Positions 1-31,900 of a DNA stretch of 64,000 bases are shown piece by piece. The translations under genes and the position numbers were made by a program. The notes under the pieces were generated by a model. That model saw only the letters and a list, made by a program, of their open reading frames with translations, ran no database searches and was not told where the DNA came from. Source of the stretch: Owenia fusiformis (lineage: Eukaryota); NCBI GenBank assembly GCA_903813345.2, contig CAIIXF020000001.1, forward strand, positions 14,880,001 to 14,944,000, written 5' to 3'. How positions within the stretch are numbered: position 1 is the stretch's first letter; every line of letters starts with the position of its first letter.

Positions 1-614
1 TTTATCTAATTACCATGACCTCAATGAAGATTTACTCCAATCAAGATTGTCATAAACTCGTTTCAAAATGTTTGGAATTAGAATTACATTATACTCAATA
101 TTCATTTAATTAATTAATCTTTCGCTATTTATCAATTACAGGATTTGATGTATTGACTTTTTCAATTAGAGATTGTTGCTTTGTTCTCGGGTGAAGAAAG
201 TAAGCTTTATTTACATATATAACTTGGATGCATATCTTGGCTACTTGTGAAATATTTGAGATGAAGTAAGGCGGCTCCTGATTAATCACTCATGAGGTCT
301 AAGTGAATTTAACAAGCATAATCCTCGGGGACACCACAAAACCAGCTCACTGTGATTTATAGCTCTAAAAATACATGAACAATTTTTCTAAGGTCAAATT
401 AGATTTTCATTAATCTGACAATATCTTATTGAGCAATGATAGAAATACTTGGCTATGGCTGATTTTGAAAATCTTGTTTTAATTTCCTTACATTTCGCCC
501 TGCATGTATTATTAGTTTCAAAACTCAGATATTTAAACATTTTTTAATTGAAAATGTATGTTCATATATTTACCAACATTGAACATTTTTCTCGGCAAAG
601 AAATGTTCAATATA

Positions 615-1112
615 CAGTAAAACCCGTCTTAGTAAACACCTCTCTCTAATGAATACCTTTCTCCAGTGGACATACTCTACTGTCGACTGCTGGATAAATT
701 ACCCTCTCCATAGTGAAAACCTACTAACAATGAACATTATTACCACCTTATCGGGCCTGTTCTAGGGGTATTAGTGCAAGTTTCATTAGAAGGCATTTAT
801 TTTACTATATCGACTTGAGCAGTATGTGACGTCATAGTGGCGGGCCATATTGACGGTCAATAATGCAATAAACGACCGGCAATTTTCCCCGGGAAATTAG
901 ATATCGTTCAGTGCATAAGATTTTCTTGCTATTTCAGCCCTGGTCATTAAAGGTGGTAATAATACTAATAACGTCATTTCTGCGGGCAATATTGTGAAAT
1001 ATTGGACCTTCGGCTCTCAGGCCCTTGGTCCAATATTTCACTATATTGCCCGCAGAAATGACGTTATTGTCCTTTCTCACCAAAAAAAGTTCAATATACA
1101 CAAGTTTTACTG
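615..1112. mobile_element. pogo/Tigger-like MITE (TA-flanked) carrying a nested hairpin repeat
   Basis: Ends TA|CAGTAAAAC at 613-623 and GTTTTACTG|TA at 1104-1114. No coding capacity. Confidence 0.55.
967..1068. repeat. Long hairpin (42-bp arms, 1 mismatch, 18-bp loop)
   Basis: AATAACGTCATTTCTGCGGGCAATATTGTGAAATATTGGACC (967-1008) is the reverse complement of 1027-1068. Confidence 0.9.
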
Positions 1113-4100
1113 TATTTAAAGCAGGTACAGCATCATCCCAAAGATATGTCAGATATGCGTGTCAGACAACTGTGTCATTTTATTAATTTACATTGTTGTA
1201 TTATGTCCTCAGCAGCATCAGATAGAAGTGTCAGATCTTTTTTTTAATATTAATTAACTTACCGTTGTTGGCACTGAAACATTCATCACACATGCGTAAC
1301 AAACCATTTCTCCTTAAATGGAGAAATTTGTTGAAAATAGTCCCTTTTCATCATAGATTTATTTTCTGATAACATGTTACATATGTATTCTTTTAAGTTA
1401 CTTAATGTATTTTGTCATATAATGAAATATAATACACTATAAGAAGAAATATCCATTGAAGGAATTTTAGTTATAATTTTGCTGATAAAAGTTTACCGCA
1501 CATGTGGCTATTAGTTAATACGGGCAGTGCAACCAATTATTTATGTGAAGTCACCATGCGCACGGTGAAAGATTTCCTGCTGCAGTGGTATGTTGAAGGC
1601 TAGCACTGCCACGGAGAATGTGATACTACATAATGTATGAATCAGAGCAAAGCTCTTATTACAATTTGAACAAAAGACCTGACAACAAATGCTGAGTATC
1701 TATTCAATAAATATACAACAACAAAAACATCCTTGTAGTAAGCATTATCTTCTAATCATTCTTAAATTGATTTCTTGATGATATATTTCTTCAAAGCATT
1801 GTGAATTGTGTGTGTCACATTGTTAAGAAGGTGACAATTGATGACGTCAGATGAACAGCCAGGTGAATGCCAAGGTAAACACAAAGGTGCATGCCTGGTG
1901 AATATACCTTAAAGTAATGTCCTGATATATTGAATGAAACCCACGAGCTATTAGCTCACTGAGGCCACAGAGAGAGAGGAGATAATCATTCAATTCATGG
2001 TTGATAATAATCTGTAGAAAACAATAAGTGCATATAGGGGAAACATGGAAAAGGATAGGATTAATTCCCTTATAAATGTCATTAGATAAAAGGACAATAG
2101 GACTGCAATAATCCCAAATGTCATGCATATACTGAACAAAGGTCACATTACATCGCCAATAACTCTAAAAGTAATCTAATCCATGAATTAACAAAAGAAA
2201 AAATGTGATTGGTGTACATGGATGTTCAGTCAAATTACAGACATCTGAAGTTCACAACAAATAGTTTAAACGTCAATGAATGATTTAAAATTTCATGAAA
2301 TTCACCAGTTCACAAAACTGATAACTTCTCTAAAAAGTAAAAACTGTGGCCAGGTAGAGGCCTCATAGGACCTGCATTGAGCAATCCTAGGATATACATG
2401 TTTTCATTCCAATGCCAGATAAAATATGTATTAGATGCACATGTGCTGAAAGGAAGAAGACTAAAAGTGTAATAAAAACACAGTTTATAGCAATTCAAAG
2501 CAAAAAAGGGTTAAGGGGAAAAATTTCAACATCCCAAACAATGAACATCCGCTCCCCATCATTGAAATGTCCATTATACACACAACATACTATGAAAAAT
2601 ATACATACATGTATCAAACTCATATATCTTTTCCTCTATATTTTATACAAATAATCATCCAATGCATCTTATATTTTTCTTCAAAATAATACCATGCCAT
2701 ACATAGTTAAAGATTCAGATTTGCATTCCCAATATAAGTTATTTCCTTAGTTTCTCCAAAGTCACTCATATTTGAAGATAAAATGACATATCATTTAATA
2801 TAAGTTACACCTTGCTACTTTGTTTTCATTTTTCAACAAAACCAATGCATCTGCCAGCTGCCAGTAAGTAAATATTATTCTGCAAAAAATAAACTTAACA
2901 AAAAATAGCTCGAAATAAATGTTAGGTTAGAACTTAAGTTCCTGTTGTCATTTGTTTCATATTTAAATGTCAGGTGAAAAATGGCCACAAAAACTCAAAA
3001 CTGTGAATTCTATGACATTTAATCTTGGATATAGCCTTTTGGATATTTCCAGGAAACCTTTAAAGATTCCCATATTGATTACGATACAAGATATTGCTTC
3101 TATAATACCATAATGCATTACTGCTCTATATAATATATACAATATATAGTGCATTATGCAATACATACAATACATGATGATGCTTAGAAAGATGATCTTT
3201 CTGGCACGAACCCTCCTGTTGACTTTAGATATTTATAAAATAACATTTATGTATGACGTAGATCGTTAACAGAAAAATGTTCGCCTCATAGTTGAGACTA
3301 TTTTGGAGCATAACCTTACTAATATTATCCAGCGTTGATGTTCATGTAGTGATGAGATGGGTGGTAAAACATGTTAACAAGACGTCTACACAGTTATGAC
3401 ATGTGTTCATAATATATCACTAAAACAATCATTTTGAAACATAAAGTAAATTACAGCCTCGCATACTTTCTGCTAATAAAAGAAGCAAAATATTGCATCT
3501 CTAAGTCCTATATATTACATGTAATTGCTCAATTAATGGGCTTTTTGACATTTCTATTTTTACTTGAATCTCAAAGGGCTGAAATTGCATCAGTTTCAAT
3601 GTTCATCAAGGTTAGACTCAGAAGTGTAACTTTAATGTTCACACATTAAGCCTCATCTCAAGTGGTTCCCCACTAAACCATGTTAATTTTGGTAATGAAC
3701 CTTTTCTCACTGAAATGTCATTTCTTCCTGCTAGACGCAGATTGTGCTGGGTGTTTACATAAAGAAAACAATAAAATCCTTCTTAATGAGCTTTAGCCTA
3801 ATAGGCCTGTGTGATATATGGTTATCTTTACCTCTCTGGCTCTCTTAGGACCCTGGATAGGCTATTTGTTCTGGGTGAACCAAGTTAGGTGCATTGACTT
3901 CAGTTCTTTTTATCCTCATTTCTTGTGACTTGTTATTATCCTCCCTTTATGAACATTCCACATGCTATTACATAATCATTATATTCTGGATCTAATCATA
4001 TAACACATATAGATGGGAGAACAATATCACCTATTTTAGGCCAAATTCTCTTTTATCAATATTCACACTTCATGTATTACATAATCGCTCGCTTTGATAC

Positions 4101-5371
4101 AGATCACTAAATAACTGCGAAGACGTTTTTTTCATATATAAATACAGCACTCATATTAGGAAATTTCTAGGTTTAGGAAATTATTTGGTATTAATGCTAA
4201 ATACATTTTTATCAATTTGGGCTAGTTGTTCTTTTTTCATGTGTGCCAATCCATTACTTTACTAAATATACTGTAAGCATAAGATAAATTATGACAAAAA
4301 TCAGTTAAAATTTTATAATTGATGACTTTTTATAAAACATAAACCAGTTATCGTTCTGATTTATGAACAATGATTTTATATGAATTATTTAGACATTATT
4401 TTTCGATACATTTGAGATTAAACACCCTTATTGCATTCACCCTTGAATTTAGAAAGCCGATTTTTCATTCATATAGCTCTGTTAACTATAACGTCCCTGG
4501 ATGTTTCATAAATATTTGATGTTTAGTGCCCAATGAAACTGAACTTTCCTTTCCTTTTATCAAGCTCCCTGTATGGTCTCATACACAGACATAGTATACA
4601 GCATAGTTACGAATCTTATGCTGCCTACAATTAACCAAAGGATAATTTTTTACATTTTCTAAAACAGATTCGCATTGATGTAAGAAATTAATAATAATAA
4701 TATAATACTGCTTTGGTAGATATAACTAAATATCATTTTAGGTATGTGTGAATAACAATAACATGTATATAAAATATTAGTATATGATGGTAGGAGCCGG
4801 TAGAGATTAATATAGCGTCATCTAGTCAGATAAATTATAATGCATGATTTAGAACTATAATTAGTAACTTATACTTTTAAGAATAATCTCTGTTTAAATG
4901 ATAGATGCTGAAACAATTGTTCCATGGTGCACTAGACATATTAAAAAAAATAGTAAAAATATTTTTCTGGATACTACATTAGCAATAGATATCTGCAATA
5001 GAGGCATTGAGTTTTTAAAATGTAGAATATATAGAAGCACCCATCCTATTCTAAGTACTTTATTAAACGTTTTTTTAATTATAATAGCTAAATCTGAATC
5101 AATGAAATGATCACTGAATTGTATAACAATTAAAGTGTATTTATATTGAATGATAAGTACAAATCCCTTCAGTATAAATGTACACCTTCTATAGTCTTCT
5201 ATAGAAACTTAAATATGCTGCTATCATGCTAGAATAACCCCTTCTTGTATATGTCCCTTCCATGTCTTTCTGTGTATGTCAATTTTATTTGATGATTTTT
5301 TGCAATCTGAATACATTTGTAGTGAGTAGACACCTTCTTGCTTTTGAACGTGCCGCACGATTTATTTCCAG

Positions 5372-6258
5372 GCTATGGACACAGTACACCAAAAACCGAT
5401 GCCGGGAAAATATTCTGCATGGCTTATGCACTGGTAGGGATACCACTTGGGATAGTCATGTTCCAATCTATAGGAGAACGTCTTAATACATTCGTGACTT
5501 TGTTGCTCAAAGTCTTAAAGAAATGTGCCAGAATGAAGAAGACTGAAGTATCTCAAACTAATTTGATAATCATTGTGTCAAATCTCAGCGTATTAGTCGT
5601 GACAGCGGGTGCCGCTGCGTTCAGCAATTATGAAAAATGGCCATACCTTGACTCCATCTATTATTGTTTTATCACATTAACCACGATAGGGTTTGGAGAT
5701 TATGTAGCCATACAGAAAGATGGACATCTCCAATCAAAGCCAGAATATGTGGCATTTACTTTGATATTTATCCTTTTTGGACTAAGCATTATATCTGCTG
5801 CTATGAACCTTCTAGTGTTGAGATTCCTTACCATGAACACTGAAGATGAACGACGTGAGGAGATTGAAGCAGCTAATGCCAGAGCCAATGCCGTCAAACT
5901 AGATGGTGATGTAATATTATCAAACGGGTCAATGATTACTGCACGTTTACATGAGACCCAGGTAGACTTCCAAGAACCTGATTTACATTCGGTTTGTTCC
6001 TGTTCATGCTACAACCTAGGACATAGTTCCTCTAATAGTTTAGATAACACCAGGAAAAAACACAGGAAAAATAATTCAAAATCAAAAGCAACGAGATACA
6101 AAGTAACGAGATCACCAGGCAGGATAGGCCATCTATTGCAGCTAAAGACCATAAATGAAAGTGAGCATCAGAAACAAATGCAGACACAGGTTCAAATAGA
6201 ACAAACTGAATCTCTTCTCAGTCAACACTACCTTCAATCCAAAAGAGCATCAATATGA
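5372..6258 (+). CDS. KCNK9: TASK-type two-pore K+ channel (KCNK3/KCNK9/sup-9-like), terminal coding exon copy A (P1 filter to C-terminus); first exon not in window
   Basis: Acceptor TTTATTTCCAG|G at 5361-5372. Reads (G)YGHSTPKT...[13 protein letters not shown]...[11 protein letters not shown]...KRASI*. Has the His after GYG, the second pore loop TIGFG, the X-gate VLRFLT and a TASK-like basic/Ser C-terminal motif. Confidence 0.92.
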
Positions 6259-6289
6259 CCTTATATATTATGCATTGGTATCAGATATT

Positions 6290-6745
6290 TATGATCATAT
6301 AAAGCATTCACAAACAATACAAGCATTCATGACTATTTTAAGGCCATATATGGTCAATCTGAAACATGTATGGCCATGTTTAGTATTAATGACCATGTCT
6401 AGTATTTTTGATTATATATATGATTCATGACCAATTTAGTATTCTTGACCATTTAGAGTATTCATGACCATGCATAGTATTTATGACCATATAAAGTATT
6501 CATGTTCATCCACAGTATTTATGACAATGTAATATTGATGACCATGTTAAGTATTTATGGCCATACAGAGTATTCATGATAATATGGACCATTCATGACC
6601 ATATGAAGTTTTCATGATCATATAAAGTATTCATGGCAATGTAAAATATTGATTACTGTATATTTATGACCATAGAGAATATTCATGACAATGTGTTCTA
6701 TTCATGACCATTGTATCCATGACCATGAATGGTATTCATGTCCAC
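6290..6745 (+). repeat. Degenerate ~19-20-bp minisatellite in 3' UTR of TASK exon A
   Basis: About 20 imperfect copies of AGTATTCATGACCATA(T/G)A-like units. Confidence 0.8.
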
Positions 6746-9700
6746 TTATATCAAGATCATAAATACTATTAATTCCAGTATACAATAGTATACACTATGT
6801 CTATCCATGTGACCATTATGTATGATATTTCAATGTGACCATATATGGTCTTGGAAGTGCTTCCTTAGTAGACCAATGTGAAATTATGACAACTTCCATA
6901 ACTTAGTTCTGTCATCAAATTGCATTTCTGCAAAAAGTCATGACACCCATTTCTGATCCAGTCGCAATCCTATTATAAAAGCTAACATCAATACCAGTTA
7001 CAAAAATAATTTTCGAGACGAAACAGGGGATTAAATTTTTCATATTATGATCTTCTCGATGATTTATAGTGACACAAAGTCTGGAGAGGGTACCACAAGT
7101 TCACATATTTTATCCTGAGATAATATGGAATGATTATTTTTCCATTACTAAAACTTGATGAATCTCTTATTGGGATCCTTATAATTTTGATAATTTGTCT
7201 CAATTAACAACTAGTTGGTGAAACATTACTTTTTTAGATGAAGAAATCCATCAATATCATATCTAGATTTTCTCTCATTCAGCTACTGGTTTAGAATTGG
7301 GTTGTCATGGCTAACATAGTTTTTCATTTTTAGCAAATTGTTGAAAATGAAAATGTATTTGAACTGCTGTAATAAATCTTTGTTAATGTAAAAAGTATGT
7401 AAATATTTTCTTGTTATGATGGTAGAAATTTTTCTACTGAATGTCATGTAATTTTATCATTATTAAAAGAATGAGCCTTGAAAGGTGAAAGTATGTGACC
7501 AGGTCATCTCATCTCGTTAGACCACATACAAACATATTTCAAGGCATGTTAAGTAAAAGGTAGAACAAGTTATTTCTAACAAAGGCTTCAGCAAACAATG
7601 GCAAATAAATTTGAATTGTATTTATATAAGCAAATACCTTATCTTTTACATAGGTTACACAAATAAGTTCATTTAGGAAATGGTAAATTCCAAATTGATA
7701 TTTCTTTCAAAATTAATTAAGATAATTTTCTCAAATATTTTCCTTGCGGGTGAAGTTAAATGAATGTGGGTTTTATGGAATGTAGATTTAATGACGTGTG
7801 GGTTTACATGAAGAGAATATTCTCAACATATTCATTACACCCTTTATATATCACATCATGTCATATTTTAATCTAATTTAAACTAAATTAATTACATTAT
7901 ATACATACAACAGGATGATATTTAGACCACCCGTTTCGAGCATTATTCATCAGTTTTATAGACATCCTCGTATCACCATATATGGGCATTAACAATGCTA
8001 TTTTATTGTCCATCCTGTTATGGTATGGTAATTCACACATATCCAGATCCTGGTCATTAAAATATTGAATATAATGGAAGGCTTGATGTTTGAAACAATT
8101 GCTAAGCTTTACTGGGATCACATTGACATCACACTGACAGTATAACAATAGAAAACAAATATATGTTTGAATTGCTGGATCAAGCTGAACACACATTATG
8201 CTGATCATGAGAGACACATATCTTGAAAGAAATGATGCCATATTCATTCATTTGAATATAAAGCAACATGTGTGCAAACATGTGAGGAATTAGATATAAC
8301 TCTCACAAGTCAGGCTTGATGAAGCCAGTCCAATTTGCCAGTTTTCCCTACAGGGGATTCGAAAATGACTTTGCCTTAAATTAAAGTAAAATTGTAATTT
8401 TCAAGACTATATATCAAGAAGGGAATTCTCATAGGGGAGTAATTACTGACCTATAGAAGGTCGATGGTAAGCCTAAAGAGAGCCCAGAGTGGGGAATGCA
8501 ACCAGATTACAAAGCGTCTAAACCACAGGGATTCAGTCGCTTGATCATATTAAAAAGGGGTCATGTAATTCATCTATATCAGCATTAGCTCTCTGTTTTT
8601 GTTATCTGTCTGGTGTATTCCAACACAGAAAAAACATATCTTAAATTAAGACAAATATTTCATTTTAAAGAAGGCAAAGTCTTTTAAGGTGTCTATTGTT
8701 AGACCTGTTTGTGTGATGTCACTAAAAGCCAGCATATAAATTCATTCTTATCATGTCTACCTTAAGTAAATAGGGAGTAAGAATATCAGTGAATGGGGAG
8801 AATTATCTCATTTAAGGAGCCTATTAGAAGCTTTTTGTTATTAGATGAGTCATTTGAATATCAGTAAAGTGCAGAATTAGTAAAACATTATGTATAGTTT
8901 TGCATTATTTCACTATGTTTTGTTGAATTCGATGCATAACTAACTAGGTCATTTGCATATTTTCTCTTTATCTGATGTTTATTGTAATGCAATTGTTATA
9001 CTAAAGTGCTTAAATTAATTAGTGAATATCCTACATTGTACATTCCATTGTAACATGTTTCATGAATTTGCACTGCACCTAGAGATTGTTTTATTCAATA
9101 TTCACTTTATCACCATGGTATTGCTCTATTTCAACAAGATGAGCTTTCACCAATTAAATGTATACATAAAAATTAATTTTGTTAAACTTGGTATAACCAT
9201 ATGTGCAACATATATGGATTATTAGATTACGGATTATTAGATTGTATAAACAAATTAAAATGACAGCCATTTTTTATTACTAATTGAGATTACGCTATTA
9301 ACCAAGGTTTCACCAAAACAACACATTTATTATTTAATTTGTTTTGCCTACATGGAGTTTGATTACATACCATTATGTATAATCTGCTTTTACATTATAT
9401 CATGTGAATCATATCATAGAGGCTAGTTTGATTAAGAGTTATGTTTAGAATTATTTTTCTTTTTGAAGAAAAATAGAGGAATGGGGTGTTAAATTTATTT
9501 GTTTTTTACCCTCAGAATGGCTTATTTTGGAGAATAAATTATATACTGTTGTCCAAATAGATGAAATATACTAGAATCAAAATTTATTTTCCATAATTTC
9601 AGAAATGCTAAACATTTCTTTTAATTACCTTAGCCTATTAAAGTTAACAGTATATACAGGTTACTTGTGTTTATTCATATTATTCACTGTTTCCTCATTC

Positions 9701-12700
9701 TGATTCAGCAAGCAATGATTACATATGAATGAATAATCAAGTATGCCACAAAAGTGTTTCTATTTGTATGTTTTGTAATAACAAGTGACATCAATCAGAA
9801 TGAATCAAGAAAACCCTCAATAGACTGGAACAAAAGCTGTTTACATTAAACATATTGTAAAATTATATCAAGTGATTCATATTTTGAATAACTGAAGTTG
9901 TTTTGGAATTGATTTTTTATTGAAAATTCTTGTATTTTAATTTGACACAATTTAATAAATGAAAACCTGTCTGTACAAATTAACCAATCGGAATAGGTAA
10001 ATCATGTCAAGAATTGTAAATCACGCTAACCAGGATGTAGGTGGCAGCACTGACAACACAAATGATCAATAATTTTGAGAACAATAACACTGGCAGGAAT
10101 AATATCTCTTGGCTGGTGGATGCTTGTAAATAACTGAATTAGCCTATATGTATGGAATACATCAATAAGAGCCAGAGAATTGAGGTCAGCATATCAGGAA
10201 TCAGTTGCGTAACTAGATAACTGCTACAATAGCCATGACTTTCTGGCTATAGTATGCAATGCTATAAAACAATTGTACAGCAATTATGCGGGCAGATATG
10301 TATAATCTTGGTACATGTATGTATTTGTCAGAGTGCTGTCATCTGCATATAGCGTGATGATAATGTATTTTCTACATTAGAAAAATAATTTTAGCAAGTT
10401 TTAAAGCTTTGGTTAGCCTTGCCCAAGTCAGTACTTTTTTACTTATCGGATTTTGAATTTTACCATAACAGAAATCAAGATAAGTAAAAGAGACCGACTT
10501 GGGCAAGGCTGAGCTTTGGTATATTCCATGGTATTTACATTTTCACATAATGTTACCTTTACTTTTACCAAGACATGGTATAACCATGCTTGACATTTCG
10601 CTACATTGTTGACCAAATGCATTTTTATATAAAATAATAAAAAAAATAACAAAATATGAATAAAACATGTTTGCCTTTGAATGATATGCGATTCATAAGA
10701 ATGTTATTGTATATATTTAAATGGTTAATAAGGCTTTATTATTCAATGTATCTCTTAATCATAACTTTTTTTAATTTATAATTTGTATTCTTCTTCCAAC
10801 ATGCCTGCCTTCTGGCAGAAAAGATAAGTACAAAACAAGTAAGAGGTTGACTAAAATGTGGTACACTAAATAATTCACATATTTTTGTGAATTGCTACTC
10901 CACCCACCCAACACTGTGAAAGATATTTGAAACATAAATGTACAGCTAAAACAGCAGTGAAATTGTGGGAGACGAAGCCCTCTTTTAGAGATGTGAAGTG
11001 ACACTATTTAATCAATGGATAATATTCAACAGACTCTTTTAACACCTACCCACAAAACAAACATATTACCTGCATAATTAAGTGTGAAATATATGAGAAA
11101 ACCCCTTAAAGCTACTTGCAAATTATAAATAAAAAGCGTGTCCTACCCTTTGCATTCATTCGACTTCACTTCTTAAAAGCTTAAGAGAGCTTTGTTTTCA
11201 CTCTTTCAGTTTACAATAAATCTCTGATCTCACCGAGCCAATCAGTGTTTGTCGTCGAAATACGGACAACTTTCTATATGGTCATTTCCTATGACATAAC
11301 CGCATAGTTAATGAGCACGTATTTAGCATGTGTTCCTTCTACTTCGCTGATTGGTTGAGAAAGGCTCAGTGTGGTAGATTTGAAATGATTTATTACCCGG
11401 GCTGTCATAGGCACCAATCTTTGGGGCGGGGGTGCCAAACTGTAATATAGTCTATACTAGGCAGAGGGTAGTTTATAACTAGACGTGCGCAGGGTAAGCA
11501 TGTCCAGACCAGTGATAAAAAACAAAGAATTCTTCACATTGGGATGATATCACATGAAAGATGCTAAGAAATTTAATTCCTTATGTTCATATAAGTATAG
11601 TGTTTTCATAGAGACAACATAGCCCCAGATCTTTAGCCACTGAATCTTTCTGATTCCTGACACATCATTGAATTCCAAAATGGTTATAACATGTTGGAGA
11701 TGGAGCAACTGAAACCTCGTGAATTAAGATGGTTTGACAAATCTGAACCTGACCTCTCTCCTGACCTCTCTCAATAAAGCTTACTAAAACTACAAAACCT
11801 TATCACTTTATACAATTCAAAAGTAATGAGTTCAAAAACCAAGACTCTCTCCGCAATTGTAATTGTTAAGATTTTTTTCATCATTTTTTGTTCCTCTCGT
11901 TTTTATAAAAGGTTGTTCAACCTTCATCTGCAACTGATGTGGTTTATCTGCTCTTGAACTAGATCATTGAATAGATATTAGGAGTATACAATGACACATC
12001 AGACTGTACATTGATACAGATCCGTTGCACCACAATATACTGCTTTCACTATATGTGGTAAACTTAGAGTAAACCTCACAGATGATGTAGAGTATGTTCT
12101 AACATTAAATCATAAAAAACATAGAGATCATGTAATATAACCAATCATCAAAATTAAATAAGTAAGTAAATGAGTTTTATCTCCCATTCAGACCTAAAGG
12201 ACGCAATGCATTTTCAACAAGGAACATACTGAGATAGAGACCTATTTTTCAACATGGTTGAACAAAATAGCATGTTGTTCAGCTCCAGTTGTAACCAATG
12301 AAGAAGATCCAATGTAGAGAGATCAGAAAACCAACAAAGATAAATTGCTTGGATAATAGAAATAACTTTATCAACTAATCAGCTAAATTTATTTTTCAAC
12401 CTGTCACATATTTTATGACCATGGTTCTGTTAATAGTTCTAAATATTATGAGCAATGAATATACTTTAATAGAAGGAAAAATATGATCCAGGCATCAAAT
12501 ATTCATCTGAAATATCACATTTCCTAAAACTTATTGAACAATTCCGAAGATTTTGTAATTGGCTTTGTGAAAAATTGATGCTATTCAAATGGCACATGAA
12601 GCCTAGACATTCCCTTATCATGGACAACATCATAATACAAGATCATACTAACTATTACCATCATATCCCCAATGGCCCAGAATATTATGCGGGAGAGCGA

Positions 12701-15599
12701 TAACAAATTGAATACAAACTTCACTTATAAATCTTAACAGAAAATAGATAAATCTTGTAAACAATAAGCTATATTACGTGACATTTCGGAGTAAGCATTT
12801 TCCAATGACAAATCGTTGTTGTTAGTGTGATATCATCTCAATTTTGTCGTGGACATGAGTTCAATCAATCTTTAAGGTGGGGCTTTGTCAGATTACATAT
12901 ACTTTTTCTACTTTTGATTGGGTCACCTTAAGACAAAAACAATATTATTTATCAGAATTTAAGTAACATAAAAAACATTTTTGTTTTCACTGATTCTAGA
13001 TAAAAATTTATTGCTTAAAAATTCTGTTCCATTCCAAATAGACTTGCGTTTATTACCCAAAAGACCCATTGAATAGGATAAGTATTCCAACCACAGTAAA
13101 TAAGATAAGGTATTCTGAAAACATATTGCATAACAATAGGCTGCTTCCAACTGGGAGGGAGAAACATAAAATTAACTTAGTTTACTAGACAATAAGTATT
13201 TCAGATTCACCACTACTGTATTTGAAAATCCCTTGGGAATACAATCAATTGGAAGCATGCTTTATCAACTAGCCATTCGAGCTGCCTATCCACAAGGAAT
13301 TTCAATACATTCTCCAATCTTTAATAATCAAATAATTTGGCCCGGATAATAAATGATTGCATGGTCAGGAATGTTTTCTATTATTATATGCTATGAATAG
13401 AAAAGAACATTAAAGCTCTCCTTATCTGAGAATTTATTAAAGATGTTTCTCAATATCGTTTTATGTATAGGGAGTTTTAATTAAATTTCAAACAAAAGGG
13501 ACTATTATAATTGCAGGCTTCAGCTGTTGAGGTAACACAATAAGAATCTATAAAGTCTAATTGAGAATTTTTGTGTCACTATATCATTCCTGGAAAAATA
13601 ACTTTGTAGTCAATACAATTTATCTAATAAAGGATTTACCTGGGCCGTTTCATTATGCAATTTATTCTGCTGAATCTCATCGATTTTCTCGTGGATTTGG
13701 AGCATTAAAGAGATATTTCTTGAAAATCTATTCCTCCCTTGGTATGATAGCTATAACCATTTTCATACAAGCCATATTTTGGAAAAATGGAAAAATGTTT
13801 TGATATGATCAAACTTGATCATTTAAAAATACTGTGCTCTTCAAGGTTCATACAGGAAGTGATGTCATTGACTCTTGACTTTTATAAACTTGCCTATAAC
13901 AGTATAGGAAAGTAGAACGAAATCACTAGAGAGTAGGTTCTTACTTTCTGTGCAAAAATAAAAATTAAGTGAAGGGATTCAAATCATAGACACTCATGAA
14001 AAAGAATATTCACCTGATTTTGTGCTTCTTACATACATTCTTGCCTTATGGCTATGCAAACTAACAATTGATGACATCACTACCTGTCTTAAAAGGAATA
14101 TCCCTTTAAGTTCCTGGTTTTCTTAAGGTAAGCGGTGGGACATGAATAATAAGTAGAAATAAATCATTACGATTTCCCATGGGACTTTACCTACCTTAAC
14201 ATATTTTCGGTACATTCTCTACTATTCACAATATGCACAATAAGTTTGAGTGGAATATGATATCTAATTTTTAGAAAATGACTGAATCCGGCAGAATCCT
14301 AAAAATGTATATTTTTATAATTCATCAGAAATTGGGCATTAAAGAAAGATTTAGATTTCAAAAAATAATCTTTCAATTTCAGATTATTAATTTTTAGTCC
14401 ATTTTTCACAGAGTGATAATTACACAATCATTAATGATGTATAAATATGTATTTATTGTAGTCATATACAGTAATTACCATAATCTAATATCCTGTAATT
14501 TCTTTTAATTTCCTATGTCTAATTATAAAAAAGTAAAATACTTCAATTTGCATGTAGAATACCATACTCAGTTGATTAAAGCTACATATAAGCCAGGGAT
14601 ACAGAAGCATAGACTCGAAGTGAAAATAATATAGAATCATATTTAACAAAATACCCAATTATCCGGCCTTCTTCTAAACATTTTTTTCAACTTCACAATC
14701 TTGAAAAAAACTGAATTCAGTATCGATAATGAATTTGGCACATTGAAATTCATCGATCCATATCAAACTGCATCTTGAATTGAGGATACAACTATAAATT
14801 ATTATACCATATATCTCTTTCTTTACTTTAAAACATTTTCAAAATAACAAAATGTATGTACTGTGTATATTAAAATGTATTTATTTTATGATTTTGTATT
14901 GTGTGAATGTTTGGACCATGGTTAATATATAGGTTGGAGGACACCTGCAGAATGAGGTAATGTAAGTAAATGTGCATGCAATATGGTATCCCAGGTCATG
15001 CAATGCAATGTGGATTCCCTGGTCACGCAATGCAATGTGGGCTCCTGCAACATTGTATCCAGGCCCCTTACCACAATGAATATCATCCCCTACACAACCT
15101 AACACTAGACAAGGATTATTTACAAAATATGAACAAATCTGTTAAAATCTAGGTGTAAATAAGTTTAAAACAAAGTTGGATATTATTTTATAGATTTGTT
15201 CATATTTATTTTATTTTTACAACATTTTTATTTCTCATCTTTATAAATTATATAATCTTTCTCGACGTATTAAAATGCACGACGTTTCATATTGAAGGAC
15301 AATATATTGAAACACAAACACCACCATTTTGATAAAATTGACACTCCCTAAAATCTTATACCTGCACAATGTTCCAAAATATATGTATAAAATTAGTGTT
15401 TTATTTCAGTATTGACCAGGCATGGCTGCTATTATAGTACCTAGAGCAGCAGAAATGAATTATTTATTGGAGAAAAGAATTATTTATAATGAATTATACC
15501 ATGTGTCCCTTCTATCACCCAATGCTGTACTAGGAAGCACAGACTTGTGTTAAGATTATATTTAAGAATGAAAATGCTCTTACATCAAGTTGTTTTAAT

Positions 15600-15810
15600 T
15601 TTTTGAAAATTGCATGGTCAATTATTGTCCTTCATTACATTTTTCTCAAGGCTTTGGATTCTATTGGATTTTATTGAATGGTTAAAACATTTTGTGAAAA
15701 TTGCATGGTCAATTATTGCCCTCATTACATTTTTCTCAAGGCTTTGGATTTTTATAAATTTTATTGAAAAGTTAATTTTGTGGATATTGCATGGTCAATT
15801 ATTGCCCTAT
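15600..15810 (+). repeat. ~85-bp tandem repeat (about 2.5 copies)
   Basis: TTGCATGGTCAATTATTG(T/C)CCTCATTACATTTTTCTCAAGGCTTTGGATT at about 15610 and 15701, plus a partial copy at 15787. Confidence 0.75.
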
Positions 15811-16915
15811 ATTCGTACAATTTCTGAAAGCTTCGGTATATTTCTACTGCACGATCGATGTTTAGAGATCTAGAGTGACATTGGTGGGGGTCGTCAATCT
15901 CATAATTTAATATCTTCCTATTTATCATATAGCTTAACTTCTTACAAGTCAATGATTTCTTACACATATCGAGTTGATATATTACTTTCAAGTGAGCAGT
16001 TAATCGCCTGCAAACATTATTCATCATGCATCAGTAATTGTAGATATGATAATGTTTTGATTAAAAATAGATTTCATTTTTCAAATTCAGTTAATATGGG
16101 CACGCTGACATGACATTTACATAAGAAATAGGTTATTTTTTTTGTACTATGATTGATGGTTTAGAAATTGTTTATCTCTTTAGCATTCAATACAATAGAT
16201 TTAATATTTAACAGCATTCTATCTCAAGAATATTAAAATTTGAACACTTTTTGTCCTATTTTATATCCTAGTGACCTCGATTAATGTTCATGTTGACCTC
16301 GATTGAGATATTTCAGGGAGAGACAGGTAGAACAGCATGTTATGTGAACCGTTAAATGTGAACACCAATAATCTAATCGTTTAATACTTGGAAATTTCTG
16401 TCCTTACTTATGTTAACAAAGATATTAGTTCACTCACAAGAGGTCTCAATTCTAAAAAATCTCATGGAAATTTGTTTCACCTGAAGATTTACCTTCCCAA
16501 TGTTCTACCATTTATCCACCTTTTTAAGTGTGCTGTGCCATCAGCACTTTGAAGGTGCATGTACTTAGTCTAACCATGTTCAATATAATACCACTTGATT
16601 ATCACAAATCCCCCCTATTAATGAATATTTTAACAGTACTGTTTAGTCTTCCTTATTATCCCTTAATATAATAATGACATCTCCCCTTTAATGTTTATTA
16701 CACAGAAATTAAGTGATTAAAATTAAGATTATCCCCCCCACCAAAGCAATCTCTCTTATTGTTAAAATTCACATTGAATTTCCAGGGACTTTCAAGTCCA
16801 CAGAATTTCATAAATTTATATTCATTGTAATCTTCACCAACTGGGTAAATTCAAACATGTCTTCAGAGGAATACATATAGTAACATTCAATAAAGCTGAT
16901 ATTCTATATTTCCAG

Positions 16916-17772
16916 GTTATGGTCACAGTACACCTAAGACAGACAGTGGCAAAGTCTTCTGTATGGCGTATGCTCTAGTAGGTATTCCCCTATGTCTGGT
17001 CATGTTCCAGAGTATTGGTGAGAGGCTCAATACATTCGTAACTTGGATTATAAAAAACCTCAAAAAATGTGCACGCACTAGGAATTCCGATACTGTATCG
17101 CAGACTAATCTAATAGTGGTTGTATCGAGCCTTAGTGTTATTGTTGGTTGTGCAGGTGCTGCGGCTTTTAGGAGCTACGAAAAATGGCCATATTTGGATG
17201 CCATCTATTATTGCTTTATTACACTAACTACAATAGGATTTGGAGATTTTGTAGCACTTCAGAAGAAGGATACATTACAAAATAAGCCAGAATATGTAGC
17301 ATTCAGTCTAGTATTTATTCTGTTTGGGCTGACGATTATTTCTGCTGCAATGAACCTGCTAGTGCTGCGATTCTTGACAATGAATACAGAGGATGAACGG
17401 CGTCAGGAAATTGAGACGGCCGTCGCGAGAGCTCAAGCTGTAAGACTAGAAGGAGATGTCATAACTGCAAATGGTAATGTTGTTTCACTAGAGCAGAGAG
17501 AGGAAGCACTACCTGAGTTCAAAGAGCCAGATTTACAGTCCGTCTGCTCTTGCACCTGTTATAATATGCGTGAAAAGAAAACGAAGAACAGGCGGTATAA
17601 AGTGACACGATCTCCAGGGAAAATTGCCCATTTATTACCATTACATAGACTCAGTGGAAGACCATCCAATGGTCATCAAGAATCACCACATACTAAAGAT
17701 GATATTTATAGTAATTATGACGATAATTCAGTTTTACAAAATTTATTAAAGACTAAAAGGGCATCCATTTAG
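16916..17772 (+). CDS. KCNK9: TASK-type two-pore K+ channel, terminal coding exon copy B
   Basis: Acceptor CTATATTTCCAG|G at 16904-16916, same phase as copy A. Reads (G)[18 protein letters not shown]...TIGFGDFV...VLRFLTMN...KRASI*. The frame is intact. Confidence 0.92.
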
Positions 17773-19410
17773 CACCTTCTGTAAATAGTGAATGAGTTTA
17801 TAGTTCACACATCAGATTTAAAATAGTACATAAGATATGGTATAGGATTTAAATGTTACAGTGATATGTGTGAAATATAAAGTCATTTTGTTTTAAAAAT
17901 TATATTTGTTGTTATAGTGACCATTGAAAAACTAACAATGATTTTACCTTCCTTCCCATTAAAAATCTCTCGTTCAACATTTTGAATCGGGATATTCATG
18001 CAATAAAAATATCCGAGAGCATGTTTTTACTTGTCTTATATCCTTTGTAAGGAAGTTCTCTCTTGTAAAACATGCAGACTCAAATGGACAGATAATTTGT
18101 TATATAAGTGCACCATTTTTCTGTATCAATAGTGCAGAAGAACTGTCATATTATACCAGATAACATTACTATTTCATATTTGTATTTATTGTTAATTTGA
18201 ATTGAATTGATCAAGAATCATTGTTAGACTTTCAAGGATCATCGATTATCCTGACTTTCCATAAAGATGTAAATATTTTATACATTGAAAAACATTCGTC
18301 CAACATTGTACATATAACATATGAATATTGAAGTAGGCGTCGATCTAGAACAGTTTATTTGAAAGGAAATAATAATTTTAGTGTTTTGCAAATTAGCAAA
18401 ACATCCCTCAAGCTTCAATGTGCCAAGTGAAATCAATAACAAAGGAACAACTATATACACAAAAAATCATTTATCAAAAGATGTCGAGAGAAATTTAAGC
18501 CGAAGCGATTAAATGATGGTGAAATGTAAAGTAAAGATTGCAATTAAGTAAAGGCCAATGTTGTCATAGTTTGACACCAGACTTTTTCATATAATTGTGC
18601 CAGGAGTAATCAAACCAAAGAAAAAGTAGTCTTTCATAATTTAGAATTGTTGGGGAAACTGTAAACTTATATTGTACACTATTAAACTGCTTTAAAATAA
18701 TTCAATTTAAATTTAAAGATCCAAAATTATAGAGTTAGAATTATTTAGCTTTAATGTGGTATATGATTTGTGTGAGTTCATATCTAAATAAAAGGCCATC
18801 GAGTCCATTTTTGTTATCGAGTCCAATCATCAAGTCCAACCATTGTTACTTTGTTATTTTCCCAATAGTCTATAATCTGAATGGCTACATGCATAGAGAA
18901 ATGAATTTAGGGTGAATGTAATATACCATATCTAGTGTATATGTTATATAGGTACTAGCCAAACATGCTTCTACTCTCCATTGATTTATAAAGTGACCTA
19001 ATAATTATGATTATTTTCCTTATTATATATACTTAATCAAAGGCACATGGGACCATAATTCTGGGGGAACAATAATGTATTTTACACCACAACTAATTGA
19101 ACCATGAACCAGTTATATGTGATTTTGAAAATAGATATTTCCTAAAAAGAACTATTCTGGACAAAAGATGTAAAAACATAAAGTTATTTTGACAAAAACT
19201 AGAAACAAATTTAAATAATTCAAAGCGGTACCTTTGGTTTGTTATGTAATCAGAAAGAAATCTGTTCTTTCGATGAACAATGATATACAGAAGTGTATGG
19301 CTAATTTACTTCATGGGGAAATATAAATCCAGGGATATAAATCTAGAGATAACTTGTTGAAATAAGATGGACAGAACTAATCTTTCAACTTATATAGGTT
19401 AATTGCAGGA

Positions 19411-19511
19411 AGGGATTGTAAATGGATTTTATCTTGAGGAATGATATGATATCTGACCAAATGTACCTTCAATATTATATCATTCCTCAAGATAAAACCC
19501 ATATATAATCC
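19411..19511. repeat. Imperfect long hairpin
   Basis: GGGATTGTAAATGGATTTTATCTTGAGGAATGATAT pairs with ATATCATTCCTCAAGATAAAACCCATATATAATCCC. Confidence 0.7.
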
Positions 19512-22500
19512 CAACCAGTGATTGGTCTCCTTTATGCCATGATGTATCACTTCTTGTGCAAAACTATCAATATAGTAATTCTTATGTTCATGTTTACAAG
19601 TACATGTCTACTCTGCAGCCAAAACATCATAGGAATTGTTTTATATTACTTGAAAGATCATCATATTATTTCTCAATTGTAGAGGCCCACCATGAAGTAT
19701 GGCTAAAGCAATTAAATTCAATGATTTACATTATTTCATATTTGAAGATGGACAGGGAATATAGCTTTTCAATTATCTCAAAATTTGGAGAATTATTATA
19801 CGTCTTAAAACAATTTCTTCTTCATTCAAAATACTGAAACAGCGTCGAAACATGAGTTATTCTCCATTAATGCTCCATGGAGCTTTTTTATTATGTAATT
19901 TAAAAAAAAAACAGATCTAGAAACATTTTATTTATTTCCCAAGCCTCACATAATTTATTCTTGTCATTGTGTGTAGACAAAACATTGTTCTTTGTTTACA
20001 TAACAAACCTATCAATATGGCAAGATAAGAAGCCAATGTGTATGTTAATGTAAGTTGTAAGGCATATTTGATATTCATGGATGAAAAACATCAGGTCGTG
20101 TCAGAAGTAGGTGTCTGAAATATAAGATATTGAATAGTATTGAGGGCAATGGAGGAGAGATATTATAAGAGTGATACAGAAAGATATTGTGAGGGCAATG
20201 CCACAGCAGTATTGCGGAGGAGTAATGATGTACATGTATTGCAAATTTGTATTAAATGCAATGCATAATTTTGAGGGTAATGTTTCCTATTTGGACATCA
20301 AAAGCAATGCAAAATAGGACTAAGATGACAGCAAAAATGACTTATCAATACAATTACTTAAATATGTTCATGTACTTAATATTGATCTTGCAAAATGCTG
20401 GTAATCGTGTGGTTATGCAAGAATACCAAGTCTAGTCAAACACAAATACAGAGAGTGCAATATTTCTTACAGCAAAAACATCTTAGATCTTAATATTTTG
20501 AAATATGATGCCAAATCCAAAAATGCTTTTATACAGGACTGTAAAAACTGTGTTGAACTTATGAACAAAAGTAATAAATTGCTTATTCATGATCTGCATT
20601 ATTGATGGGGTAGAGATGACAATTTAAAAGTATTTAAGAAGTGTTAATAAAATGCAGCCATGTACTTGTATATTAACTTTTTAATCCATGGATGAACTGG
20701 TAATGCAGACAAGAGTAGATCCACAATATAATTAATAAAAATATCACCTGTGTATTGTTTTAAAAATTTGATTGTATAGAAGACAAGAAACATAAAAAGT
20801 CTGCTCTTATATTTGACATGGTTCTAATATAATATAAAGTTGTTGAAAAGGTACTGCTGTTCATGAGTGACATATATTCGCTAAGACCAGTTATAGAATT
20901 CAGTAAAAAGAGGAAAATGTTTGAATCACAGATATAATGATTAAAAATGTACCACGCAATATCAGTGATTGACTGAAAGTAGCAGCTGGAAATATTTTGT
21001 CATTTTTAGTCTTCGAAAGGTTACTGGCTATTTTGGTACCAATGGATATTTAAAAGGTAATTTTACAGACCTTTTGATAAAACATAATTTTGTAATTTTC
21101 AGGACTATTGTATTTTGCCAGAATTTATACAGGTATCATTTACTTTTGACAACAATACAGCTAAACATGTATATGTGAACACCTTTCCATGGTGAAACCT
21201 CAAAATGTGATTTTGTTGTCTACAGTTTAAGTCTACAATCTCCCCATTTAGTTTTTTCTAATATTAGCATTGAGATGTTTTTTCTGCTATAGAGTAATTT
21301 TAGAGTATAGTTCTTCCATTGGAATTAGGGTATACAGTATTGTAAAGAGTATTACATATTATCACATGGTAAGGAGTTTCGAAGCATTTTGATTGGTCAA
21401 TTGTGATGATGCATATTCTGTATCAGATGGCACATGAGTAATTTTCATCTGATATGGTGAACTGTATCACTACAGAGTCAATAGTAACAATATGATTTCG
21501 CTGTTTATAGCACTTCATAACTGAAGACATATTATTTCACAGACAAGTACGACGACAACTACAGTTATGACATCATATTATTTCAAGGCGAAATTTCAAA
21601 AAACACATAATATAATGCAGTTTTAAACAGCATCGGAATAACCAGGGCAGACAACTGATTATCACAACTGACCAAATTAAAATGCTTAAAAACTCCTAGA
21701 TATGTGATAAAATCGTCATCACACATTTCAGCTAATGTTTTTGCTTTTGTGGATGATACAATGTTACCCTTCGTGGAATAATTTCATGTGATAACTGGTA
21801 TTATGTCTGTAAAATTTGAGTCACAGTCCCAGAGAAATATCACGCAATCCAGTATTCTGGTTATTTCCAGTAAGTGTTTTAAGATGAAAATTCCCTAAAA
21901 ACTACCATTTATTGAGGACAAGCTGCAAAAGTAAGTGAATTTTTGAGAAAAATTTGCTCAGGTATGCTTTAATTTTGTGAACCCAAGGAAATAAAAAATT
22001 CTGTTAAAATTCTGCAAGTAAAGTTTAATTTGAAACCTTATTTTCAGAAACCTGAAATTCTGCAGTTATCCAGTCCAGCAGTCCATTTGGCAATCTAAAT
22101 TCTGGAATTTTGTGTGAAAAATGGTCAATATGAAATTAGAACTCGAAATGAATATCGGTAAGCTTCATATTCTGGGGTTGTGCTTCATACAGTGTTACTG
22201 TATATATTGTATTAGATATAATAGCCAGATTATGGGTTAGGTTTTATCTAATTAAAATTTCTGAATTATTTCTGTATCTGTGTATACTGTATATATAATT
22301 TGTATATAGTCTGAATGGTGCAAGGATTACATGGAACAGATATTCATGAATGATTAAGTAACTCAATCTTATTATTGCATTGTTTAATCATTTCATGTTA
22401 ACATCATTAACCAAAGTGTTACGTGACTTCTAGGGATGCCTTTGTTAGGTATATAAAGGCAAAATTCCCACTGACTCGACATCATTTTTGTTTCTGTTAT

Positions 22501-28690: not shown

Positions 28691-28935
28691 TGCACATGTC
28701 ATCATTATTAATTAAAATAAAATAGTTTTAACATTTGATAGCTTTTACAATGATGTTAGTCAACAGTCAACAATGAACTTTGAAACATTACCTAAGTCCC
28801 TTACTCTACTGCACTTACCTACCAGGGCACATTGAATCCCTTAATATCAATTTTGACAGTTCATGATGTAATCTTTTTTGGAATATTGCAACTCAAATAA
28901 ATTAAGCATTATGCCTGATTCTTCAGTATTGTTAT

Positions 28936-31900
28936 TCATATATCACAGGCTTTCACTTTGACCTCAATAGAGGGCTCCATTGTCCATGTGTCTTTAATTG
29001 CACTGTTGCCGAGGTAACCGCTACAGGTGGCGGCCATTTTGAAGTAACCTGCCTCACAGAGGATAAATGAACAAGCGTGGTTCACAGTGGAGTTTCCTTC
29101 AATCTGGAAATATAATATACACTTTAAATATATGATTTTGATTAAATGATTTAATCTCAGGACTCAATAAAGTCATGATAATTTTAAGCACAAGGGTCTT
29201 GCATGCGACTATAAATGAGGGTGAGAGCCAAAATTCAAAGCCTAGCATACAAGACACAGTATACAAATCACCCACAGTACATTGAGTCATGTGCTTAGAT
29301 TGTTTTCCGAATTTAACCAGAAACATTTTTGCAAGGGTTTTTCAAAGTCAACATTATGACCTGCATATGCACCTACTTGGCCTTTATGATACTACAATAA
29401 AACCTGTCTGTTACAAACACAATGGGACTGCCAAAAAGTGTTTGGATTAGGAGGTGTTCAATTTGAGGTCAATCAGCAGGACTGTGGATTTTGAAGAAAT
29501 GTAAACAATTTTCACAAGTTTGATTGGCTAGTTTTATGGCATTCCAATAATTTGAAAAGATTCAAATGAATTTGTTAGTCATGTAAGAAAGATACATTAT
29601 GATTGAGACAATTCACACCACTGATGTGTTCAGATATACAGGTTTTACAGGTTTACTGTATTTATAGTTTTTCACTCAACTGCCAAATTGAAACTATGAA
29701 ATTTTAAAACCAACCTGTTTGAAGAAATGTGAAGGGGAGCCACCAGGGATAATGCCACTACAACTGGCATCCTTTCCCTCCATCTGACAGTCTTGTAGGC
29801 ACTTTAGGCATACAACACACTCCTGTATTGAGCAATCTACAAATAAATAATATCTCATAACACACAAATTCGAATTTCAAAATCCAAAGGATAGAGGTTC
29901 AGGCAGTAAATTGGCTTGAATTGGCAGTGTTTAATTTGGTGAATTTACCATTTTTGAGTGATTGAGGGGTTCAACAGTCAACAATGAACTTTGAAACATT
30001 ACCTAAGTCCCTTACTCTACTGCACTTACCTACCAGGGCACATTGAATCCCTTAATATCAATTTTGACAGTTCATGATGTAATCTTTTTTGGAATATTGC
30101 AACTCAAATAAATTAAGCATTATGCCTGATTCTTCAGTATTGTTATTCATATATCACAGGCTTTCACTTTGACCTCAATAGAGGGCTCCATTGTCCATGT
30201 GTCTTTAATTGCACTGTTGCCGAGGTAACCGCTACAGGTGGCGGCCATTTTGAAGTTCGAATTTCAAATTGAGGGGTTCAGATTCAACGGATATATAGAG
30301 GTTCAGACTGTAAATTGGTTTGAATTGGCAGTGTTTAATTTGGTGAATTTGCCATTTTCGAGTGATTGAGGGGTTCCGATTCAACGGATATATAGAGGTT
30401 CAGACTGTAAATTGGTTTGAATTGTTTAATTTGGTGAATATACCATTTTCAGAAGATTGATAGGGTTGTATTTGCTCACCTGCTGAGTTGATGAGGTCGA
30501 CTTCAATGTTAACTAGGTCACCTACAGTGAACTGATGTCTCACACCTTCTTCATGGGGTGTACCATTCACTCTCACATCTACAACATAAAATTGAATTAT
30601 ATATATTATATATAAAATGTAAAAATATAAATAGATATAAATTGTAATACAATTCTAGAAATCTATGAGTTAATTTATCATTTTTCAAGATATTTAATGT
30701 GACATTAAAGACTTTGAACAGTGAGAGGGAGATGATGTTACTTAAAATATGAACTTAAATATTTTATCCTGGTTCAATGTTGCTGAATGTGAGAGTAAGA
30801 CTTTGTTAGATTACAGTTTCACAAGACTCAGTCCCCTAGTTTGCTAGAAAGGATATTTACCCCATTATCACTAATGTTTTGCAATCTTGGCAATTGTAAC
30901 TGATATATGTTATATTAGATATAAAATGATAACATGGAAAAGTAATATTTACCCCATTGAACAGGTGGTAGTTGTATGAGGGAGATCTGATCCTGGGTCC
31001 ACTCAAGATGGTCCAAGTGCAGCACCCCACTAGTATTATTGCATGACTGCATCAGTTAAGGTAAATTACGTGTACATTTAATAGACCTTTTTATGGATAA
31101 CTGGTTTTAGCAGTGACAACCTGGGGGTCATTAACAGAAACTTAGTAAAGTTACGAATTCGTAAATCAATTGTTGTAACCATGGATATAATGACGTCACA
31201 GTTAGAGAACAATGGGTTTTGCGAATTCTTAACTTTATGAAGCTTCTGTTAAAGGGTGACGCATATCGTTTAGCAAATCGAACGCTCGTTTCTGGTGTTG
31301 CTCACCGTTTAGTATAAAAGGCCCGATCCCGGAATAATACTCAAGGGTTCACAGGCTCGAGGTCGTTGTGTCAACACCTCTAACTGTTATATAGCATAAG
31401 TATATTATAAATCGTCACATATTTATAAAACGGTGATTTTTATTTTGACAAATCAATTCCACATTTATGGGTGAAGTTTCAGGATCTTCTATTTGTGTAT
31501 AATAAGGAAAAATTGACATTTTTTCCCCATAACGTAATAGCACACAGCTTGGTATATGAAATATCCTACAAATGAAACAAAGCAGTTCTAATACAAGGAT
31601 TTATATTGGCTGTTGTACATATTCTTTGAACGCAATCACTCTATGGATAATGTTTTCAAAATCATTATAATCGGATTACTTTATCTCAAAGACAATTTCA
31701 ATAAACTGGATTTTACAGAACTCCCCTTATTTCTTAAAAATGGACTGATCCAGTCGATTCGCCTGGAGCCGCCATATTGTTTTTATACGGGATGCTTATC
31801 GGAACCCTTTAATGGCCCCCAGGTGACTAGGGTTAATTGTTGGAAGTGGATGAGAGACAAGGCATTAACATGCAAAATGTCACCACCTGCCATATGTTAC

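Follow-up and report, generated by a model that had tools for sequence, protein, structure and literature searches.

What does a potassium channel gene do with two complete last exons? The question is raised by a stretch of 64,000 nucleotides from the annelid Owenia fusiformis (assembly GCA_903813345.2, contig CAIIXF020000001.1, positions 14,880,001 to 14,944,000 of the forward strand), which we call the window and number from its first letter. In the window, two paralogous exons, A and B, each encode a large part of a TASK-type two-pore-domain potassium (K2P) channel subunit. Since the two copies are old, intact and expressed, the gene most likely makes two channel subunits by choosing one exon or the other. 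On balance we lean towards a specific form of this answer, in which a single K2P gene yields two pore-forming TASK subunits through old duplicated terminal exons, about 75% of the subunit being replaced while the dimerisation module formed by the first helix (M1) and the cap stays constant. If so, the replaced part extends from the first selectivity filter onward and includes the second pore, the inner gate and the regulatory tail.

The elements of the locus are given below. RNA evidence was mapped on positions 1-20000 and comes from contigs of two runs (X2 and X3) and from the raw RNA-seq reads of two others (X17 and X19); UTR stands for untranslated region.

1..5371, + strand: 3' part of the intron upstream of exon A; no exon 1 found by tblastn, and contig depth low.
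5360..5371, + strand: acceptor of exon A, from the sequence and from X2 and X3 contigs that match from 5370.
5372..6258, + strand: terminal exon A, coding, 295 aa, stop at 6256-6258; from the frame, BLASTP, Pfam and structure matches.
6161..6166, + strand: internal GTGAGC, used as a donor in a deposited 642-aa model; RNA contigs are unbroken there.
6259..10326, + strand: 3'UTR of exon A, at least about 4 kb; from X2 and X3 contigs and stranded X17 and X19 reads.
10327..16915, + strand: spacer between A and B, intron for B transcripts; no exon 1, and a deep repeat at about 10006-12006.
16903..16915, + strand: acceptor of exon B, from the sequence and from X2 and X3 contigs that match from 16914.
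16916..17772, + strand: terminal exon B, coding, 285 aa, stop at 17770-17772; from the frame, BLASTP, Pfam and a contig depth of 104-176.
17773..19910, + strand: 3'UTR of exon B, a lower bound because RNA was mapped on 1-20000; from X2 and X3 contigs.

Both exons lie in + strand frames that are open from stop to stop (5326..6258 for A, 16900..17772 for B), the two longest + strand frames within 4500-18500. Directly 5' of each stands the same tatttccag|G, a pyrimidine run ending in ag, and both acceptors are in phase 1 and fall within the first selectivity filter. Of the Gly codon just ahead of Y-G-H, the upstream exon contributes base one, and A or B the last two. An earlier note on this DNA, made from the letters alone, had given these coordinates and open frames and had placed both starts at the same filter point and in the same phase, all of which is borne out by the frames and the acceptor sequences. 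Exon A spans Gly95 of the first pore (P1) filter, helices M2 and M3, the second pore (P2), helix M4, the X-gate and the tail. The two proteins are identical at 190 of 302 positions (63%, BLASTP E 1e-128), and Pfam Ion_trans_2 is matched with an E value of 1e-24 by A and likewise by B. Their cores are almost colinear and their tails differ through indels, that of A carrying an additional Ser/Lys-rich insert relative to B; further differences lie in the M2-M3 loop and in the residue that follows G-F-G-D of P2, while VLRFLT and the C-terminal KRASI are present in both. At the DNA level the similarity (70%) covers 5363-6014 and 16907-17564, that is, the exon plus only 9 nt of its acceptor, and no third copy of exon 2 was found in the 64-kb window.

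Both A and B align with the human KCNK9 (TASK-3) and KCNK3 (TASK-1) chains of the PDB from residue 95 on. These are the best PDB chains for each exon, with E values of 9.5e-63 to 6.3e-61 for A and 1.6e-63 to 1.4e-60 for B, against 1.7e-23 and 1.2e-22, respectively, for KCNK10 of the next subfamily. The filter His after G-Y-G, the P2 filter and the VLRFLT gate segment are aligned with the TASK-3 chain in both exons. The earlier note had stated that the two copies keep the filter His, VLRFLT and KRASI while their tails diverge, and the BLASTP comparison and the TASK-3 alignment agree with it. A putative extracellular pH sensor (the filter His) and a putative gate (VLRFLT, after M4) are present in A and B. 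Each exon 2 comprises the end of P1, M2, M3, P2 and M4; M1, the cap and pore helix 1 are found in residues 1-94 of a deposited Owenia protein model, P0255, whose exon for this part lies outside the window. Judged by these sequence comparisons, membership of the TASK-type K2P channels (the KCNK3/9/15, sup-9 subfamily) is well supported. Furthermore, the invertebrate homologues inspected also end in KRASI, KRSSI or KRLSI, and a basic-x-Ser-x C-terminal end is a trafficking motif in vertebrate TASK channels. Among the 120 matches listed, the best relatives are spiralian and chelicerate proteins annotated as sup-9-like, with up to 61% identity. In 49 of these 120, the gene model opens with some junk residues right before G-Y-G-H, which indicates that the filter intron is conserved and that exon 1 is often lost by gene predictors.

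How old is the pair, and are both copies maintained? Over 278 aligned codons (Nei-Gojobori), the proportion of synonymous differences between A and B (pS) is 0.81, which is saturated, and the nonsynonymous divergence (dN) is 0.26, with 0.155 in the 181-codon core and 0.49 in the tail. A tree was built from 100 exon-2 sequences, for which only the 98 of the 120 matches that contain the filter motif were taken. On this tree A and B are sisters, with a support of 98 in the Shimodaira-Hasegawa-like approximate likelihood ratio test (SH-aLRT), and the pair adjoins nemertean sequences with a weaker support of 86. The saturated pS, the dN values and the sister placement together indicate that the duplication is lineage-specific but old, and that both copies are under purifying selection. 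The synonymous divergence claimed in the earlier note, which had proposed a dN/dS check, is upheld by these values, and both copies prove to be constrained. The two variants shown by run X3 inside exon A (5775 and 5940) are both synonymous.

Are both copies also expressed? The contig depth over A is 55-60 in X3 and 83-86 in X2, and over B it is 114-176 in X3 and 104-160 in X2. In six bins of 1335-5336, upstream of A, it is 0-3.35 (X3) and 0-2.89 (X2). Between the exons, in 12007-16675, it is 0-27 (X3) and 2.3-54 (X2); five of the seven bins stand at 0-6.9, and the two higher ones coincide with a repeat-like opposite-strand joint of depth 649. X2 and X3 are not recorded as RNA; depth confined to exons is the behaviour of RNA, and we therefore treat both runs as RNA-like. 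In both of them the depth rises sharply at the two acceptors. The A contigs match from 5370 and carry 27 additional 5' letters that are found nowhere on 1-20000, and the B contigs match from 16914 with 26 such letters, in X2 as in X3. In the contigs the two bases before A and before B both match AG, so that the match begins 2 nt before each exon, which an upstream exon with a terminal AG would explain. The match starts and the additional letters thus indicate that A and B are spliced at the predicted acceptors to sequence outside 1-20000.

On the 3' side, A is followed by contigs of 5370-7957 then 7954-10326 in X2, and of 5370-8502 then 8497-9888 in X3; B is covered by 16914-19910 in X2, and by 16914-18783 and 18828-19598 in X3. 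Both exons are terminal: in RNA, each runs through a stop of its own into a contiguous 3'UTR. Raw reads over 5337-10005 (about 7-8 in X17 and 9 in X19, estimated from depth bins) always have their first mate on the minus strand, as a stranded library would show for a + strand RNA whose 3'UTR is about 4 kb long. The 3'UTR of A contains AATAAA at 7371, 7604, 9533 and 9954. The first of these signals, to which the earlier note had pointed, is present as said, but it does not mark the main end of the A transcript, since RNA runs to about 10.0-10.3 kb. No joint from A to B was found among the 13 joints listed for the four runs, the depth of the raw runs being so low that rare joints are possible. 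Neither copy is silent, a case that the earlier note had envisaged: A and B are both transcribed, and the same two bulk samples contain the two isoforms at similar depth.

Several other features were observed around exon A. Just past its stop, about 20 copies of a degenerate 19-nt tandem repeat (6370-6744) are transcribed within the 3'UTR. Repeats at 668-1334 and 10006-12006 are very deep in the contig runs (thousands to 20,000) and show many loose ends; in the raw runs, reads over them have either orientation. These repeats are presumably transposable elements that are expressed, and the one at 10006-12006 terminates the assembled 3'UTR of exon A. In the intron upstream of A, a small X3 contig of low depth lies at 3363-3622, and a few X17 reads with their first mate on the + strand lie in 3336-4669; no TASK-like coding sequence was found in either interval by tblastn.

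Could only one of the two copies make a channel, the other being a transcribed relic or the source of a truncated or regulatory product? A truncated product would start at the first in-frame Met, which is residue 17 of either exon, and RefSeq does predict isoforms without M1 and P1 in spiders and horseshoe crabs (3 of 5 pairs). The raw RNA reads over B are, moreover, few and of opposite orientation. However, the core dN has stayed at 0.155 while the synonymous sites became saturated, and all hallmarks are intact in A and B; the two copies are also comparable in contig depth, and both are spliced at a canonical acceptor to an upstream exon. We consider it very unlikely that only one copy serves as a channel.

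Where, then, is the first exon? The N-termini of 29 full-length relatives, from residue 1 to the filter Gly, were compared by tblastn with both strands of the 64 kb and gave nothing better than E 0.019, the best matches being the internal P1/P2 self-similarity inside A and B. The Owenia exon-1 peptide taken from P0255 gave nothing better than E 0.22 against the same 64-kb window. The earlier note had seen no TASK N-terminus between A and B or upstream of them in the window, and these negative searches, with relatives as with the species' own exon 1, confirm it. A separate first exon for B within 6259-16915, the finding by which the earlier note would have let itself be overturned, was likewise searched for by tblastn and not found. 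Exon 1, of 94 codons plus one base, is upstream of the window start.

The deposited model P0255 gives another account of the locus. This Owenia fusiformis protein of 642 aa is 100% identical to A, and consists of 94 aa of a typical TASK exon 1, residues 1-264 of A (to base 6160) and residues 2-285 of B; a single exon 1 is thus chained to both copies by way of a predicted internal donor in the tail of A, where the genome reads A|GTGAGC, the A being base 6160. Taken at its word, it describes one mRNA that joins exon 1, A up to the donor at 6160/6161, and B, and hence a tandem protein. The fused model does sit in the public protein set, and its internal GTGAGC is a good donor in the right phase. 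The RNA speaks otherwise. In X2 and X3 the A contigs run without a break over 6160 and on past the stop; the joint 6160>16916 is absent from the listed joints, although joints with sides of 20 letters appear among them; the letters 5' of B have no place on 1-20000; and B is preceded by two letters that match AG, while the genome has AA just ahead of 6161. The protein itself would be awkward, as the M2-M3-P2-M4 of B, placed after a cytoplasmic tail, would by K2P topology be inserted inverted, with P2 and KRASI on the wrong sides. Among the 104 long matches listed, the pattern of exon 1, exon 2 and again exon 2 occurs once, in P0255 itself. Four other proteins (P0341 and P0350-P0352) were considered as further fusions and rejected: they have double pore repeats but no VLRF motif, and three of them bear the kcnk17 name or sit beside one that does. 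P0255 is also the only Owenia protein among the 120 + 104 matches listed, and no separate model of exon 1 with A or of exon 1 with B occurs among them. That such a tandem mRNA is really made seems to us extremely improbable. The fused model is unlikely, and should probably be two proteins of about 380-390 aa; if A and B are indeed alternative last exons, the 642-aa public model is an annotation artefact.

Does one exon 1 serve both A and B? We think it rather probable that alternative last exons give two transcripts from one exon 1, which would be joined to A in one case and to B in the other. A shared exon 1 is favoured by the single exon 1 of P0255, by the lack of other Owenia TASK-like models among the matches listed, by the common AG end at the A and B junctions, and by parsimony. 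The earlier note had proposed exactly this, one upstream exon 1 spliced to either A or B. Its proposal stands insofar as both exons are constrained, transcribed and spliced to sequence outside 1-20000, while the common donor is a step that we infer.

The ends of the contigs appeared at first sight to bear on this point. Logan contigs are made with k=31 and share no 31-mer, as stated in their description (PMC12424806). The letters of the upstream exon number 29 on the A contigs (27 + 2), which is k-2, and 28 on the B contigs, which is k-3. Exon A starts with GC and exon B with GTT, and the intron would start with GT plus a purine. If one shared exon 1 branched to GC (A) or GT (B), the A contig would retain precisely the 29 upstream bases observed; the 28 bases on the B contig require a further branch starting with GT, most simply the unspliced intron. 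We nevertheless do not accept these lengths as proof that exon 1 is shared, because pre-mRNA branches at two donors give the same 29 and 28.

An arrangement with at least two homologous first exons upstream of the window, each driven by a promoter of its own, has to be weighed. A and B could each pair with a separate exon 1, as nested genes (E1b-E1a-A-B, where E1a and E1b are the two first exons), or the exons could combine freely, and the locus would be either two overlapping genes or a 2x2 combinatorial unit. The RefSeq predictions X1 and X2 of the nemertean Tubulanus polymorphus have different, homologous first exons and an identical exon 2, which shows that exon-1 duplication occurs in this gene family and makes it a real possibility here; the contig-end signature is equally compatible with two first exons. 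On the other side, P0255 carries a single exon 1, and no other Owenia TASK-like protein is found among the 224 matches listed, which range over 162-2000 aa, so that an orphan exon-1 model shorter than 162 aa would escape. Moreover, even with two first exons, the donor that feeds B must skip the acceptor and the poly(A) sites of A, so that a choice of terminal exon exists under either reading. We hold several first exons to be a serious but rather unlikely arrangement.

Some observations count against a single exon 1 that is shared by two alternative last exons, and they are best taken together. The lengths of the contig ends do not discriminate one donor from two. The intron upstream of A has a slightly lower depth than the stretch from A to B, a difference not expected of a single long intron. 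None of the five RefSeq isoform pairs compared differs in exon 2, no relative with a common exon 1 but a different exon 2 was found among the 120 matches listed, and in Tubulanus polymorphus it is the first exon that exists in two homologous alternative forms, on one exon 2. Finally, a few X17 reads over 17343-18676 have their first mate on the + strand, opposite to the reads of A. These reads over the end of B and its 3'UTR could belong to an antisense transcript, and are too few to say. The 3'UTR of the neighbouring TRAPPC9 gene was considered as their source and rejected, the last coding exon of that gene lying near 28.9 kb.

With one exon 1 and two last exons, which remains the reading we prefer, the locus would work as follows. 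A single gene of the TASK/sup-9 type, with a tandem duplication of its large exon 2, which is also its last, would start transcription upstream of the window, where exon 1 with M1, the cap and pore helix 1 would also lie. The exon-1 donor would be joined either to the proximal acceptor at 5372, the transcript then being cleaved and polyadenylated within about 4 kb past A, or to the distal acceptor at 16916, in which case A and its UTR would be spliced out within a long intron. As is usual for alternative last exons, the outcome would be set by a competition of splicing versus polyadenylation, and the choice between A and B may well be regulated. Two subunits of about 389 and 379 aa would result, sharing M1, the cap and pore helix 1, and differing in M2, M3, P2, M4 and the cytoplasmic tail. 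Both products are likely to be functional channels able to form homo- or heterodimers, and the isoforms may be specific to cell types.

K2P diversity is usually ascribed to gene duplication, heteromerisation, alternative translation starts and small splice changes. If our reading is true, the switch exchanges three of the four helices, one of the two pores, the gate and the tail together; in an ion channel, a homologous substitution of that size would be unusual. The locus would then be a natural experiment on which parts of TASK subunits must match across the dimer. It would also mean that an annelid achieves by splicing coupled to 3'-end choice what vertebrates achieve by gene duplication (TASK-1/TASK-3), with heterodimers as an option here too.

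Beyond the channel gene, the window contains a complete TRAPPC9 gene of about 22 coding exons (28939-44279, - strand), tail-to-tail with the TASK gene. Its large first coding exon is 100% identical to Owenia P0135 over the aligned part, and the tblastn segments are 74-100% identical. In a millipede, a TASK-like gene and TRAPPC9 bear adjacent locus tags (CHUAL_000999 and CHUAL_001000), the two lie on contigs of equal length in Priapulus and Condylura, and human KCNK9 adjoins TRAPPC9 as well; the pairing looks like an ancient bilaterian microsynteny. A 286-bp stretch that holds the last coding part of TRAPPC9 and its stop occurs twice, at 28760-29045 and 29971-30256, 1.2 kb apart and 100% identical, and is either a very recent terminal-exon duplication or an assembly artefact. 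Also on the - strand are an exon for part of the ligand-binding domain of an ionotropic glutamate receptor (56192-56797, Pfam Lig_chan-Glu_bd, E 2.4e-08) and, in a TRAPPC9 intron, a DDE_3 (Tc1/mariner-like) transposase remnant whose match is weak (34716-35084, E 0.0012, below the Pfam cut-off).

How does the locus compare with known systems? It has a phase-1 intron in the first filter in common with the acid-sensitive K2P channels TASK-1 and TASK-3 (KCNK3 and KCNK9) of vertebrates and sup-9 of C. elegans. In vertebrates the TASK-1 and TASK-3 subunits are the products of separate genes, whereas in Owenia two exon-2 paralogues stand behind an annotated single exon 1. The nearest relative on the tree is a member of the same family, the sup-9-like X1/X2 of Tubulanus polymorphus (RefSeq predictions P0121/P0008), and it is the mirror image of our case, with two first exons (25 differences, all in aa 3-88) and a common last exon. 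The two are alike in that one exon of a two-exon gene has been tandemly duplicated and is used alternatively. In spiralian TASK genes, exon duplication is thus seen on either side of the conserved filter intron, in exon 2 of Owenia and in exon 1 of the nemertean.

Alternative 3' ends are known from other potassium channel genes, such as Shaker of Drosophila. In Drosophila Shab, the choice of last exon alters part of the pore-forming core of the channel and varies by neuron type (PMC6025963). The Owenia exons differ from those of Shab and Shaker in that both are full homologous replacements of each other.

Mutually exclusive exons that arose by tandem duplication, as in Dscam, TCF3 and PKM, are the subject of reviews (PMC9741552, PMC9013439). 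The likeness is that homologous exons derived from tandem duplication substitute for one another in frame and keep the same fold. The exons of Dscam, TCF3 and PKM are, however, internal cassettes, usually replacing part of a domain, while those of Owenia are terminal and have each their own 3'UTR and, predictably, their own poly(A) site, so that the choice would couple splicing to 3'-end formation. In the open-access collection that we searched for K2P/TASK splicing and for Owenia potassium channels, we found no description of a TASK gene with two last exons. The locus joins two known kinds of arrangement, the substitution of tandem-duplicated exons and the use of alternative terminal exons in potassium channel genes, and what is unusual about it is that the duplicated exon is terminal and encodes about three quarters of the subunit.

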